From a virus (Duplodnaviria; Caudoviricetes): a DNA stretch of 64,000 nt. Positions within the stretch are counted from its first letter, which is position 1. Every line of letters begins with the position of its first letter. Where the stretch lies: positions 1-64,000 of IMG/VR virus record IMGVR_UViG_3300020048_000009; one strand, 5' to 3'. Of this stretch, positions 26,461 through 32,032 are shown piece after piece. Position numbers and translations under genes: made by a program. The notes beneath the pieces are model-generated. The model saw only the letters and a list, made by a program, of their open reading frames with translations, made no database searches and was not told where the DNA came from.

Positions 26461-27396
26461 ATGGATATTAAACAAAAATATAAAGATTATAATGTCGGAG
26501 TAATTGTTGGACGCTTTCAAAGTCCTGAATTACATGAAGCTCATAAAGAACTTATTCAATATGTACTCGACAGACATGATAAAGTATATATATTTTTGGG
26601 AATCTCTTTGGTATATTCAATTAAAAACCCATATGATTTTGAAATCCGTAGGAAGATGATTCAAGAGGATTTCCCGATGGTTAATATTTTGTCCATTACA
26701 GATATGCCGGGGCAAGATGAAAATTGGTCAAAGATGCTTGATTTTTGTATCAATACCGTTACAGCAAATCATGATAAGGTATTGTTATATGGTTCAAGGG
26801 ATTCTTTTATTCCATCTTATAAAGGTAGATACCAGACACAAGAACTTGTCCCAAGTATTGAAATTTCAGCAACAGAACTACGCCAACGTGCATCCAGAGG
26901 AACTCTTTGCTCGAGAGATTTTAGATGTGGTGTTATTTGGAGTTATTATAATAGATTTCCAATTTGTTATCCGACCGTTGATATTGCAATCTTCAAACAG
27001 GAAACAAATGAAATTCTTTTAGGTAGAAAACCTGGAAAAAATAAATATCAGTTTATTGGCGGTTTTTGTGAAACCCGTTCTAATTCTAATGAAGAAGATG
27101 CTAAACGTGAAGTTATTGAAGAAACAGGTTTAGAAGTTTCGGACTTGGAATATATTGGTTCATCCTATATTGATGATATTAGATATAAGGGACTTAGAGA
27201 TACAGATTGTATTAGAACTACTTTTTATTTAGGTTATTATATATATGGTTCTGCTAAAGGTAATGATGATATAGAAGAAACAAAATGGTTTACCTTTAAA
27301 AACCTTGAAGAAAATTATAAAGATTTAATTGAAAAACAACATCATGTATTAATGGAATTATTAATTGCTAAGAAAACAAAGTTTAACATAAAGTAA
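26461..27396 (+). CDS. Bifunctional NMN adenylyltransferase / Nudix hydrolase (NadM-Nudix type)
   Basis: VGRFQ...HEAH, YGSRDSF, ISAT.LR; Nudix box GGF......EEDAKREVIEETG. Confidence 0.88.
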   Translation: MDIKQKYKDYNVGVIVGRFQSPELHEAHKELIQYVLDRHDKVYIFLGISLVYSIKNPYDFEIRRKMIQEDFPMVNILSITDMPGQDENWSKMLDFCINTVTANHDKVLLYGSRDSFIPSYKGRYQTQELVPSIEISATELRQRASRGTLCSRDFRCGVIWSYYNRFPICYPTVDIAIFKQETNEILLGRKPGKNKYQFIGGFCETRSNSNEEDAKREVIEETGLEVSDLEYIGSSYIDDIRYKGLRDTDCIRTTFYLGYYIYGSAKGNDDIEETKWFTFKNLEENYKDLIEKQHHVLMELLIAKKTKFNIK

Positions 27397-27411
27397 AAAA
27401 GGATATTAAAT

Positions 27412-29605: not shown

Positions 29606-30732
29606 GAAATATTACATTAGGTTTAACTGGAAGTGTTGCAACAACCCTTTCATTGAAAATTATCGAAAGCCTTAGAAATATAAAAAATGTTTCTAGTTTA
29701 AATGCAGTTTTTACTCCTAATGCAGAAAAATTTATATCTTTTGATGCTAAATTTCATGATTCTATTTATACTAAATCTAATGTAAAAATATATAAAGAAA
29801 AAGATGAATGGCAATGGTATGATGATAATGGTAAATGGATTGGTGAAAGAAATATCTATAAAAAAGGCGATAGGGTGTTACATGTTGAATTAGCTAAAGA
29901 ATCCTCATGTTTAGTTATTGCTCCAGCATCTATGAATACTATTGCTAAAATGGTATATGGTATTTGTGATAATTTATTATTATCTGTTTATAATGCATTT
30001 GATGCTACATGTAGACCTGTAATAATAGCCCCAGCTATGAATACTTTTATGTGGAATTCTGTTCAAAATCAGAGAAATATTAGAAGTTTAAAAGATAGAG
30101 GTGTTATTGTTATTGATCCTATTTCAAAAAAACTTGCATGTGGTGATGAAGGTGTTGGAGCATTAGCAGACATCACCGATATAGCTAAAAGAGTACAACA
30201 AGAGCTTTCTTGGGTGTGTCCCCTACGCCAAAGCACTAAACTATTCATCCCAACGGGCACACATCCTGGTGCCTTTGGTGCTGTTCGAAAACATGATGTT
30301 CATTGTGGTGTTGATTTATATACTAAAAATGGAACTAATGTTTATTCTATGGAAGCAGGTAAAGTAGTAGAAATATCTCCTTATACTGGTAAATTGGCGA
30401 ATAGTCCTTGGTGGAATGATACAATGGTTGTTAAAGTAGAAGGTCCTACTGGTATAATAAGTTATGGTGAAATAAACCCTTCTCCATGGTTAAGAGTCGG
30501 AGAATATATAAAACGTGACTCATATATTGGTGATGTTGAACAGGTTTTACCTGATAACAAACTAAGAAAAGATATACCTAATCATTCTTGTTCGATGTTA
30601 CATATTGAACTTCATAACCATGGTTATATCCATAAGGATATGATATGGACATTAAAAGAAGATAAACCTAAAGTATTGGAAGATTGCACATCTTTCTTAA
30701 CCGAGGCAATTGAAAATGCAACCTTTGGATGA
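29602..30732 (+). CDS. CoaC/HFCD flavoprotein decarboxylase fused to an M23-peptidase-like domain
   Basis: N-terminal GLTGSVA, HVELA, IAPASMNT.AK...G.CDNLL, APAMNT.MW, LACGD.G.G; C-terminal HCGVDL, YGE, MLHIEL. Confidence 0.82.
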   Translation: MRNITLGLTGSVATTLSLKIIESLRNIKNVSSLNAVFTPNAEKFISFDAKFHDSIYTKSNVKIYKEKDEWQWYDDNGKWIGERNIYKKGDRVLHVELAKESSCLVIAPASMNTIAKMVYGICDNLLLSVYNAFDATCRPVIIAPAMNTFMWNSVQNQRNIRSLKDRGVIVIDPISKKLACGDEGVGALADITDIAKRVQQELSWVCPLRQSTKLFIPTGTHPGAFGAVRKHDVHCGVDLYTKNGTNVYSMEAGKVVEISPYTGKLANSPWWNDTMVVKVEGPTGIISYGEINPSPWLRVGEYIKRDSYIGDVEQVLPDNKLRKDIPNHSCSMLHIELHNHGYIHKDMIWTLKEDKPKVLEDCTSFLTEAIENATFG

Positions 30733-32032
30733 TAGAAAAACGTGGAAAAAAGGAATAACTTATACTCATGTTATTCCTGAAAAAAAGAATAGAATTATTG
30801 GCTTAAGCTTTCCTAAACAGGATAAGAATTTAGGATTAGAACCATCTATTTTAACAGTATTACCTGATGGTGATAATGTAGAATATTCATATGATAATAT
30901 AGACTTTGATGATTCTGATGTTTTATATTATGCATGTTCTGTTTATATTTCAGGATATAATGAATTTAAAGAATGGTCCAATAGACACAATAAAAATAAA
31001 ATTATTGTTGGTGGTTATCACCCTACAACATTCCCAGAACAATTTGTAAATTTTGCAAATAAAATAGTAATTGGGATGTGTGATAATTTCTATGAAACCA
31101 TTAAGCAAGAAGGACAAATTGTAAACGGTATAGTTGATTATAATAAAATTCCAAGATATGATTTATATGATATTAAATATAACCAACAAGTTATACCCAA
31201 TAAAAAACAAAACGAATTATGCACATCCATAAATACATCATATGGTTGTCCGTTTAAATGTGATTTTTGTTGCAGTCCATTAATGTGTCCGACATTAATG
31301 AGTAAACCTATTAGTTTAATAGAAAAAGAAATACAATACATAAAAAATAGATATAGTGATAATTTGCCTTCTTATATTTTTATTAGAGATGAAAATTTTC
31401 CGTTACAACCCGACTGGAAAGAGCGTCTAATTGCCGTTGAGAAACTAGGAGCTAAAATATATTTATTTGCATCTGCTAATCTATTAAAAGAAGAAGATGT
31501 TAAATTCATGTCAGAACATAATGTATATATGATTTGTTTAGGTTTAGAAGATATTACAGTTACATATGCTAAAAATGTTAAACTAATAGAAGTTTGTAAA
31601 CTATTAAAGAAATATAAAATTTATATTTATCTATCTTTTATTGTTAATCCTTTAAAGATAATAGGACAAGAAGCGGCTATAAATTTTTATACTTTATTAT
31701 TCGATAGAATAAATGAAATATGTCCTGAAATGATTTGTGGTAATTTCTTAATGCCATTCAGGGGTACAAAGGTTTGGGATGAATATTACGCTTTTGTATC
31801 AGAAGAAGATTATAATAGTTATGATAGTAAATCCGCCTTCCTAATAAAAAATAAAGTACTGAGGCAGAAAATGGAATTTTTTATGTTTTGGTATCAATAT
31901 AAATATTATCTATCTGATGAATATAAGAACGTACGTGACTTTAATTGTAATGATATGTTACAGTTACGATTTATAGAACTATACGATAAACTTATGCCGA
32001 AGTATAATGCAATAAAAAATACAAGGTGTTAG
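30716..32032 (+). CDS. Radical SAM enzyme with degenerate B12-binding-like N-terminus
   Basis: CxxxCxxC motif GCPFKCDFC, upstream IIVGGYHPT, IRDENF, LGLE. Confidence 0.85.
   Translation: MQPLDDRKTWKKGITYTHVIPEKKNRIIGLSFPKQDKNLGLEPSILTVLPDGDNVEYSYDNIDFDDSDVLYYACSVYISGYNEFKEWSNRHNKNKIIVGGYHPTTFPEQFVNFANKIVIGMCDNFYETIKQEGQIVNGIVDYNKIPRYDLYDIKYNQQVIPNKKQNELCTSINTSYGCPFKCDFCCSPLMCPTLMSKPISLIEKEIQYIKNRYSDNLPSYIFIRDENFPLQPDWKERLIAVEKLGAKIYLFASANLLKEEDVKFMSEHNVYMICLGLEDITVTYAKNVKLIEVCKLLKKYKIYIYLSFIVNPLKIIGQEAAINFYTLLFDRINEICPEMICGNFLMPFRGTKVWDEYYAFVSEEDYNSYDSKSAFLIKNKVLRQKMEFFMFWYQYKYYLSDEYKNVRDFNCNDMLQLRFIELYDKLMPKYNAIKNTRC

Follow-up and report, generated by a model that had tools for sequence, protein, structure and literature searches.

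Comparison with about 120 related loci shows that the five tightly packed cofactor genes of a large lake-water phage are three separately inherited modules, not one operon. The window is a stretch of 64,000 nt from an IMG/VR phage record of 211,678 bp (IMGVR_UViG_3300020048_000009; estimated 84% complete). Here a NARP2-type NAD-rebuilding pair lies next to a coenzyme-A-type ligase and decarboxylase with a zinc-peptidase-like domain, which is common in big phages, and a radical SAM enzyme that in bacteria, archaea and other phages sits inside NAD salvage operons. Neither the CoaBC-M23/TANGO2 module nor the NAD-linked radical SAM was found in the papers we searched.

Gene identities and organization of the locus

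The original prediction described five genes with short gaps or overlaps, and this observation was confirmed. The five ORFs lie on the + strand and were assigned by Pfam and NCBIfam profile searches. The first (26461-27396) encodes an NMN adenylyltransferase (NMNAT)-like N-terminal half (residues about 5-150; NadM-type models, E 4e-14, far below the equivalog cut-offs) and a Nudix hydrolase domain (residues about 170-290; PF00293, 41 bits); its full-length homologues in phages are annotated as bifunctional NMNAT. The second (27412-28836) encodes a nicotinamide phosphoribosyltransferase (NAMPT/NadV; NF006629, 460 bits, above the 405 cut-off; NAMPT_N PF18127 and NAPRTase domains; phrog_448, 424 bits). 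The third is CoaB-like (PF04127, 101.5 bits against 22); its ORF opens at TTG 28829, but the likely start is ATG 28841, and it ends at 29605. The fourth (29602-30732) is a CoaC-like flavoprotein (PF02441, 102 bits) with an M23-like tail. The fifth is a radical SAM enzyme (PF04055, 35 bits against 29.5; CPFKCDFC motif) whose ORF opens at TTG 30710, with a likely start at ATG 30716, and ends at 32032. When the junctions were read directly from the sequence we found a 15-nt gap between NMNAT-Nudix and NAMPT, a 4-nt gap if CoaB starts at ATG 28841, an ATGA overlap between CoaB and CoaC, and a 17-nt overlap if the radical SAM starts at ATG 30716, which has GAGG 10 nt upstream.

A terminator-like hairpin at 24074-24105 (+) is the only one on the + strand between 23.4 and 34.2 kb and marks the likely upstream limit of the transcription unit; no + strand terminator-like site lies between 24106 and 34200. 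The tight run is therefore part of a longer co-directional unit that also holds an NAD-dependent DNA ligase (24438-26372, +; PF01653, PF03120, BRCT), an enzyme that consumes NAD and releases NMN, directly upstream of the NAD salvage pair, and a CCA-adding tRNA nucleotidyltransferase with an HD domain (32069-33361, +). In related huge phages the NMNAT-Nudix gene is followed by NAMPT without CoaBC or the radical SAM. No Prs/Adps-like gene (PF13793), which would make the pathway NARP1, was found in the record.

The CoaB and CoaC-M23 module

CoaB was aligned to Streptococcus pneumoniae CoaB (2gk4) and human PPCS (1p9o), and the SGGT..ID.VR.I.N.S.G, AAAVSDF, KI.S and FKL motifs are kept. In the CoaC domain (29602-30213), H94, N147 (PAMN, the Asn of the PxMNxxMW motif) and C180 (ACGD, the Cys that distinguishes PPC decarboxylases from EpiD-type enzymes) are invariant in 21 family members. 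The best structural matches are PPC decarboxylases (AtHAL3a 1mvn, TM 0.91 on the target, 35% identity; HAL3 Z 25). Both proteins score below the NCBIfam equivalog cut-offs (CoaB: NF005231, 130.7 bits against 265, and TIGR02114, 118.7 against 217; CoaC: TIGR00521, 115 bits against 220, and TIGR02113, 109.5 against 261), and a substrate other than phosphopantothenate is thus possible.

The C-terminal domain (30214-30732) scores 24.3 bits, below the Pfam M23 gathering score of 28.7, although several homologues pass (for example P0328, a family protein, at 39.7). The M23 fold was confirmed by structural alignment with VIA-align over residues about 200-376 (LECT2 Z 14.5, lysostaphin Z 14.3, StM23 Z 14.2). 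H234xxxD238 and H334 are invariant and are likely zinc ligands. By our reading of the family alignment against the M23 consensus, whose HxxxD and HxH motifs supply three zinc ligands and two catalytic His, the two catalytic His of M23 peptidases appear to be replaced by E280 and M332; an hhalign comparison with phi29 gp13 gave no usable alignment.

More than 120 full-length fusion clusters were found at 42-50% identity. The module occurs in 36 other large-phage IMG/VR contigs, and CoaB is adjacent to CoaC in 33 of 37 loci counting the window. None of the 36 has NAMPT, NMNAT or this radical SAM beside it, a comparison that leaves out the nearest relatives of the window's fusion (96% and 76% identity), and the radical SAM family is absent from all 36 records. 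The architectures comprise 19 fused, 9 split as M23-CoaB-CoaC, and 9 without M23; in five of the latter a TANGO2-family gene lies upstream of CoaB, in place of M23. Fusions also occur as M23-CoaC and as an M23-CoaC-CoaB triple fusion. The M23-like domain family has 713 representatives, and stand-alone homologues occur in PA5oct and XacN1 with no phage CoaBC nearby. Seven of the nine complete CoaBC phage records carry a NAPRTase-family gene somewhere, a figure for which there is no huge-phage baseline. The window's own record has no CoaE, ACP or other CoA gene.

The radical SAM family

The radical SAM belongs to an unnamed, strongly conserved family with 277 homologues at 55-67% identity. Compared with 120 listed clusters in this range, the window protein shows full-length similarity and has all family-invariant residues, including eight Cys. 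It has an N-terminal Rossmann-like (B12-binding-like) domain. No PF02310 (B12-binding) hit was obtained at E 0.01; there were weak hits to B12/rSAM NCBIfam models, the N-domain superposes on AprD4, MgmA and MiaB, and neighbouring Atlas clusters carry PF02310 in 57-98% of members.

Of 83 other non-redundant loci of the family, 48 have an FMN reductase (FMN_red, PF03358) directly following the radical SAM, 27 have at least one NAD salvage gene nearby, 24 have at least two, and none has CoaB or CoaC. An example operon is PncA-PncB-Nudix-rSAM-NadE-Prs-NadD-CinA-..-NrtR-NadK; Patescibacteria have rSAM-FMN_red-NMNAT-NadK, and a 254-kb phage has NadE-PncA-x-x-rSAM-x-FMN_red. CoaB is in 0 of 2 radical SAM phage records. 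Many loci lack an adjacent FMN_red, for example the Bacilli-type operons, and in the window's record neither PF03358 nor flavodoxin was found anywhere.

Interpretation

The original prediction proposed that the NAD pair, CoaB, CoaC-M23 and the radical SAM form one cofactor operon. This interpretation is only partly supported: the gene identities, the NARP2-type pair and the catalytic motifs of CoaB and CoaC hold, but the coupling of CoaB, CoaC and the radical SAM to nadV does not. Absence of recurrent linkage to nadV had been named beforehand as grounds for refutation, and for tight linkage this is what we observed.

We favor the view, with a probability of about 0.6, that the run is a mosaic of three cofactor modules that travel separately elsewhere and here lie side by side in one long early or middle transcription unit of a phage of at least 212 kb. 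First, NMNAT-Nudix and NAMPT would convert nicotinamide + PRPP to NMN, and NMN + ATP to NAD, behind an NAD-consuming DNA ligase. Second, in a self-contained, phage-typical three-part module, CoaB would ligate cysteine to a phosphopantothenate-type carboxylate, CoaC would decarboxylate the cysteinyl part to a cysteamine amide (4'-phosphopantetheine), and the putative zinc-binding M23-like domain would act on or hold the peptide-like cysteamine-amide end of that product, a TANGO2-like protein taking its place in other phages. Third, the radical SAM would belong to the NAD side, not the CoA side; its family is embedded in NAD salvage operons and is normally paired with an FMN reductase that would reduce its iron-sulfur cluster. 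It most likely performs an undescribed radical step on a pyridine nucleotide or its ADP-ribosyl/ribosyl breakdown product; in this phage the reductase partner is missing, and the host would have to supply electrons. The separation of the modules and the coupling of the three CoaB-CoaC-M23 parts are shown by neighborhoods and fusions, while NAD rebuilding is inferred from homology, any effect on NAD-depleting defence is by analogy, and the enzymatic activities of all five proteins, including the chemistry of the M23-like part, are inferred. On the other hand, the placement of CoaBC-M23 exactly between NAD genes and an NAD-linked radical SAM, with overlapping stops and starts, could reflect a real functional link peculiar to this phage lineage.

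A tentative alternative is that CoaB, CoaC and the M23-like (or TANGO2-like) protein form a catalytic cycle turning cysteine into free cysteamine, in which an amidohydrolase cleaves the beta-alanyl-cysteamine amide of 4'-phosphopantetheine and regenerates phosphopantothenate as a carrier; the cysteamine would then serve the phage, for example as a thiol or a building block. The cysteamine-bearing product offered in the original prediction as an alternative remains possible for CoaB + CoaC + M23, without the radical SAM. Two unrelated hydrolase folds (Zn M23, and an Ntn-type TANGO2 with Met-Cys and NRDE kept) occupy the same slot next to CoaB/CoaC, fusion to CoaC in both orders and the triple fusion suggest an adjacent pathway step, no other CoA pathway genes are present, and the pantetheine arm is an unbranched Gly-Gly-like amide that, we infer, suits an M23 groove. 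Against this, the catalytic histidines appear replaced and the best structural match is LECT2, a zinc-binding M23 fold that is not known to have peptidase activity. TANGO2 is reported as an acyl-CoA binder, not a hydrolase (PMC11867700), a triple fusion with a bacterial-type CoaBC (protein P0351) would be wasteful if it were a cell's only CoaBC, and no use for cysteamine is evident. It is unlikely but not excluded that the M23-like and TANGO2-like proteins are enzymes or holders specific for the cysteamine-amide end, forming with CoaB and CoaC a new three-part pathway such as this cycle; this would give the first biochemical function for the TANGO2 family, and separately the radical SAM would be a missing enzyme of anaerobic NAD metabolism.

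The original prediction's main reading, one co-evolved operon that rebuilds NAD and also CoA against a CoA-draining host defence, with the NMNAT possibly also making dephospho-CoA as a phosphopantetheine adenylyltransferase, is doubtful. The tight packing without a terminator, the fold shared by NMNAT and CoaD, the weak PPAT-model hits of an archaeal-type NMNAT next to the radical SAM in one locus (L011), and the NAPRTase-family genes in CoaBC phages are compatible with it. However, CoaBC is not recurrently adjacent to NAMPT or the radical SAM in 36 + 83 loci, the record lacks other CoA genes, and literature searches on phage CoaBC and coenzyme A biosynthesis turned up no CoA-depleting defence. 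PanK rather than CoaBC is the usual flux-limiting step, and simple rescue leaves the conserved third partner (M23 or TANGO2) unexplained. Nothing found here points to a CoA-draining defence or to the NMNAT making dephospho-CoA, and the rescue idea has no support.

Less likely still, the CoaC flavoprotein replaces the missing FMN reductase as electron donor to the radical SAM, or CoaB/CoaC/rSAM together decorate a pyridine carboxylate (NaMN/NaAD) with a cysteamine-derived group. The gene overlapping the radical SAM start encodes an FMN protein, FMN_red directly follows the radical SAM in 48 of 83 other loci but the record has no FMN_red or flavodoxin, and NaMN and NaAD carry a carboxylate that NadE-type chemistry also activates; but CoaC keeps the full PPC-decarboxylase residue set, its family occurs without the radical SAM in 36 phages, many radical SAM loci lack an adjacent FMN_red, and NAMPT bypasses the nicotinate intermediates. 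That the M23-like domain is an ordinary peptidoglycan hydrolase for lysis or entry joined to CoaC by chance is very unlikely despite its fold, a weak hit to an endolysin PHROG and the annotation of PA5oct and XacN1 homologues as M23 peptidase or murein hydrolase (PMC7318152), since the fusion is old, widespread and found in three domain orders, the partner is a cytoplasmic flavoenzyme, PA5oct gp441 was not found in virions, the catalytic His pair does not appear conserved, and TANGO2 substitutes for the domain.

Phage NAD rebuilding is a current topic, but CoA-type genes in phages have not been described in the papers we searched; the CoaB-CoaC-M23/TANGO2 module recurs in dozens of large phages and is thus a defined three-protein system for biochemistry. 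The TANGO2-family gene in the M23 slot is independent genomic evidence tying TANGO2 to the phosphopantetheine part of CoA metabolism. The molecular function of human TANGO2 and the reason vitamin B5 helps patients are open questions that small phage homologues next to CoaB-CoaC make directly testable. The radical SAM and FMN reductase pair, found inside NAD salvage and NrtR-type operons of Patescibacteria, DPANN archaea, gut Bacilli/Mollicutes-like bacteria, Gastranaerophilales and huge phages, is likely to represent an undescribed step in NAD metabolism, and the 55-67% identity between the window's phage copy and homologues in several bacterial phyla argues for a constrained, important reaction. 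For this window, tight packing in a phage transcription unit is not evidence of one pathway.

Comparison with known systems

The NAD pair resembles NARP2 of Vibrio phage KVP40 (NadV NAMPT + NatV NMNAT/Nudix; bioRxiv 10.1101/2024.02.11.579819) in having adjacent NAMPT and bifunctional NMNAT-Nudix genes in a large phage and no Prs-like Adps gene. Identity to cultured-phage NMNATs is only about 23-25%, the nearest relatives being uncultured huge phages at 35-44%, and the pair is flanked by an NAD-dependent ligase and two further cofactor modules. Compared with bacterial CoaBC (Dfp), streptococcal CoaB + CoaC (2gk4) and plant AtHAL3a (1mvn), the CoaB motifs and the CoaC catalytic His/Asn/Cys are kept, but CoaB and CoaC are separate genes, CoaC carries a C-terminal M23-like domain where bacterial CoaBC carries CoaB, and the module is phage-borne with no other CoA pathway gene. 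The M23-like domain shares the fold of lysostaphin (4lxc), StM23 (9gy1) and LECT2 (5b0h) together with the HxxxD motif and a distal His suitable for zinc binding; it differs in its cytoplasmic context, the apparent replacement of the catalytic His pair, new invariant residues (H221, R229, W270-W271, E290, R322, D324, H328), and its constant linkage to CoaC/CoaB or stand-alone occurrence in jumbo phages. The TANGO2/NRDE family (human TANGO2: acyl-CoA binding, vitamin B5 rescue; PMC11867700, 10.1101/2022.11.04.514597, PMC12359130), whose fold is unrelated to M23, is not present in this window, but its use of the same slot in five phages ties both to pantetheine-type molecules. The radical SAM shares its domain layout and CxxxCxxC motif with AprD4 (6fd2), MgmA (9ccb) and MiaB (7mjz) at TM 0.55-0.61. 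Identity is only 9-16%, no NCBIfam model is passed, partnership with an FMN reductase and NAD salvage genes has not been described for any of these enzymes, and the family has its own set of invariant Cys (C76, C124, C188, C276, C343).

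Gene organization

The window is the first 64 kb of a 211,678-bp IMG/VR virus record with about 27% G+C. ORF listing and profile searches confirmed five genes on the + strand, coding for a protein with NMNAT and Nudix halves (26461-27396), NAMPT (27412-28836), a CoaB-like protein (28829/28841-29605), a CoaC-like flavoprotein with an M23-like tail (29602-30732) and a radical SAM enzyme (30710/30716-32032). The gaps and overlaps in the original prediction agree with the junctions read directly from the sequence when CoaB starts at ATG 28841 and the radical SAM at ATG 30716, and the observation of a tightly packed five-gene run holds. 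The only + strand terminator-like hairpin between 23.4 and 34.2 kb lies at 24074-24105. The five genes are therefore part of a longer co-directional unit, which also holds an NAD-dependent DNA ligase (24438-26372) directly upstream of the NAD salvage pair and a CCA-adding tRNA nucleotidyltransferase with an HD domain (32069-33361), which follows the radical SAM after a 36-nt gap. The ligase consumes NAD and releases NMN, the substrate of the adjacent NMNAT. Near the end of the window (58001-62000) the G+C content rises from about 27% to 40-47% over roughly 4 kb. When the 5.6-kb stretch was compared with cultured phages by blastn, only a 62-bp match in NAMPT was found.

The radical SAM gene is associated with FMN reductase and NAD genes

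The radical SAM protein has 277 homologues, and the best 120 of these are 55-67% identical over the full length. A 21-member alignment shows 64% mean column identity and eight invariant cysteines. Single-protein scans of viral contigs for close relatives found none, a tblastn search of cultured phages gave no match, and a sequence search of the PDB gave nothing significant. Scans of species genomes, viral contigs and metagenomes, however, yielded 83 non-redundant loci besides the window, in which ORFs were called, clustered and named with Pfam. An FMN_red (PF03358) gene is found next to the radical SAM in 48 loci, at least one NAD gene in 27 loci and at least two NAD genes in 24 loci, while CoaB, CoaC, M23 or TANGO2 is found in none. 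The NAD contexts differ in order and lineage, as far as the loci could be placed (for many metagenomic loci the taxon is unknown). In gut Bacilli/Mollicutes-type MAGs the order is PncA-PncB-Nudix-rSAM-NadE-Prs-NadD-CinA-..-NrtR-NadK; at one such locus (L016:2548-12396, with similar loci L013-L023 and L039) it forms a complete NAD salvage operon (PncA, PncB, ADP-sugar-type Nudix, radical SAM, NadE, Prs, NadD, CinA/PncC, NrtR and NadK), in which the radical SAM start overlaps the Nudix stop. Patescibacteria show NadE..NadK-PncB-PncA-rSAM-FMN_red and rSAM-FMN_red-NMNAT-NadK, and a 254-kb phage shows NadE-PncA-x-x-rSAM-x-FMN_red. A quick tree, read without support values, places the copy of the window with another huge phage, next to the Patescibacteria clade. 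No FMN_red or flavodoxin was detected in the phage record itself. Three further radical SAM genes lie in the same record outside the window, at 151472-151957, 166103-166501 and 182722-183030 (ORFs of 339, 365 and 321 aa), which suggests a host and infection compatible with oxygen-sensitive enzymes. Literature searches for a radical SAM in NAD or NrtR operons found nothing relevant.

Distribution and architecture of the CoaB and CoaC-M23 module

The CoaC-M23 fusion protein has more than 120 full-length relatives at 42-50% identity; a cluster look-up returned no names or taxa for the fusion proteins. A single-protein scan of viral contigs found no close relatives, but a family scan of IMG/VR gave 36 loci, mostly on contigs of 100-527 kb. 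CoaB lies next to CoaC in 33 of 37 loci, counting the window. No other neighbour is conserved, and none of the 36 has NAMPT, NMNAT or the radical SAM beside it, although this comparison leaves out the contigs of the closest relatives of the fusion (P0125 at 96% and P0126 at 76%). At the genome level the radical SAM family is absent from all 36 CoaBC phage records, and CoaB is absent from the two radical SAM phage records. A NAPRTase-family gene occurs in 13 of the 36 records (7 of 9 complete ones), but never adjacent, and these counts stand without a baseline for how often huge phages carry NAMPT. Among other neighbours, an R2K-type ATP-grasp gene lies two genes upstream of CoaB in one phage (contig L068, 5765-6544), and RtcB RNA ligase genes lie near CoaB-CoaC in three phages (contigs L064, 4764-5978; L080, 4938-6209; L061, 10379-12847). 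Literature searches for phage CoaBC and for CoaC-M23 found nothing relevant.

Three architectures were observed: 19 loci with fused CoaC-M23, 9 with a separate M23-like gene in the order M23-CoaB-CoaC, and 9 with no M23-like gene. In five of the last nine (IMG/VR contigs L063, L065, L066, L078 and L080; for example L065:5624-6334), the gene directly upstream of CoaB, in the slot that the M23-like domain has elsewhere, is a TANGO2/NRDE-family protein (PF05742) with its Met-Cys start and ANRDE motif kept. A pattern scan for phage TANGO2 genes returned exactly these five contigs. This is an independent genomic link between TANGO2 and the phosphopantetheine steps of CoA synthesis. We also considered whether the genes upstream of CoaB in contigs L068 and L081 are divergent TANGO2, but the hhalign probability was below 1%, and an Atlas search gave nothing for the L081 protein.

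A search of 1.8 billion representatives with the M23-like domain alone found 713 relatives, which occur as stand-alone proteins, C-terminal to CoaC, N-terminal to CoaC in a reversed M23-CoaC fusion (P0254, 355 aa) and in a triple M23-CoaC-CoaB fusion (P0351, 565 aa). Further forms are M23 with a weak Nudix hit (P0328, 471 aa) and M23 with C-terminal extensions of 150-300 aa that match no Pfam family (P0263, P0325, P0365 and P0374); the extensions of P0325 and P0374, the only two also compared with the PDB, gave no match there. Stand-alone copies are present in the cultured jumbo phages PA5oct, XacN1 and Stenotrophomonas CM1/RAS14, with no CoaBC nearby, and PA5oct gp441 was not detected in virions.

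Proposed functions

From these results we regard it as established that the five genes exist and are packed, that they are three modules with separate distributions, that the M23-like domain is evolutionarily coupled to CoaC and CoaB, and that the radical SAM is coupled to FMN_red and NAD salvage genes. What the proteins do is inferred. In this view the NAD pair would rebuild NAD from nicotinamide, which would be useful both for the NAD-dependent ligase of the phage and against NAD-depleting defences. CoaB and CoaC, which score below the equivalog cut-offs, would convert phosphopantothenate and cysteine to 4'-phosphopantetheine, and the M23-like domain, or TANGO2 elsewhere, would bind or cleave the cysteamine-amide end of that product. 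The radical SAM would perform an unknown radical step on a pyridine nucleotide or a breakdown product, with electrons from the host in this phage. We put the probability of this mosaic reading at roughly 0.6.

Within the mosaic reading, a cycle that releases cysteamine is possible but doubtful. Less likely still is the proposal in the original prediction that the genes form a single operon extending rescue to CoA. The original prediction as a whole is partly supported: the gene identities hold, but recurrent linkage of CoaB, CoaC and the radical SAM with NAMPT, whose absence had been set beforehand as a refutation, was not found in the loci examined, and no CoaE or ACP gene was detected in the record. 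A RiPP-type reading, with an EpiD-like decarboxylase acting on a peptide, was set aside since no conserved small ORF accompanies the CoaBC modules and CoaC keeps the Cys typical of PPC decarboxylases.

Comparison with known systems

The predicted structure of the radical SAM (pLDDT 87) resembles AprD4, MgmA and MiaB only at the level of domain layout, and no NCBIfam model is passed. In the fusion protein, residues about 200-376 have the M23/LytM fold (Z about 14; LECT2, lysostaphin and StM23), although a sequence search of the PDB with this domain gave nothing significant. H234xxxD238 and H334 are invariant and fit the three zinc ligands. The positions that we align with the two catalytic histidines are E280 and M332, a mapping that rests on our reading against the M23 consensus and not on a computed alignment, since hhalign of the family against phi29 gp13 aligned only 16 residues. 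New invariant residues surround the site. The CoaC domain keeps the catalytic His, the PAMN Asn and the ACGD Cys that lets PPC decarboxylases finish the reaction to a thiol, and its best structural match is Arabidopsis AtHAL3a. CoaB aligns with S. pneumoniae CoaB and human PPCS and keeps their nucleotide and substrate motifs.

For the NAD pair, NAMPT passes the NCBIfam equivalog cut-off (460 against 405 bits) and has the NAMPT N-domain. The upstream gene has an NMNAT-like N-half and a Nudix C-half, with full-length homologues in phages annotated as bifunctional NMN adenylyltransferases, the nearest being uncultured huge phages at 35-44% identity. In those huge phages the gene is again followed by NAMPT, or lies near a related PRTase, but without CoaB, CoaC or the radical SAM. 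NARP3 is a PnuC/NadR system and is not relevant here. The record has no Prs-like gene, so the pair has the NARP2 rather than the NARP1 layout (bioRxiv 10.1101/2024.02.11.579819).
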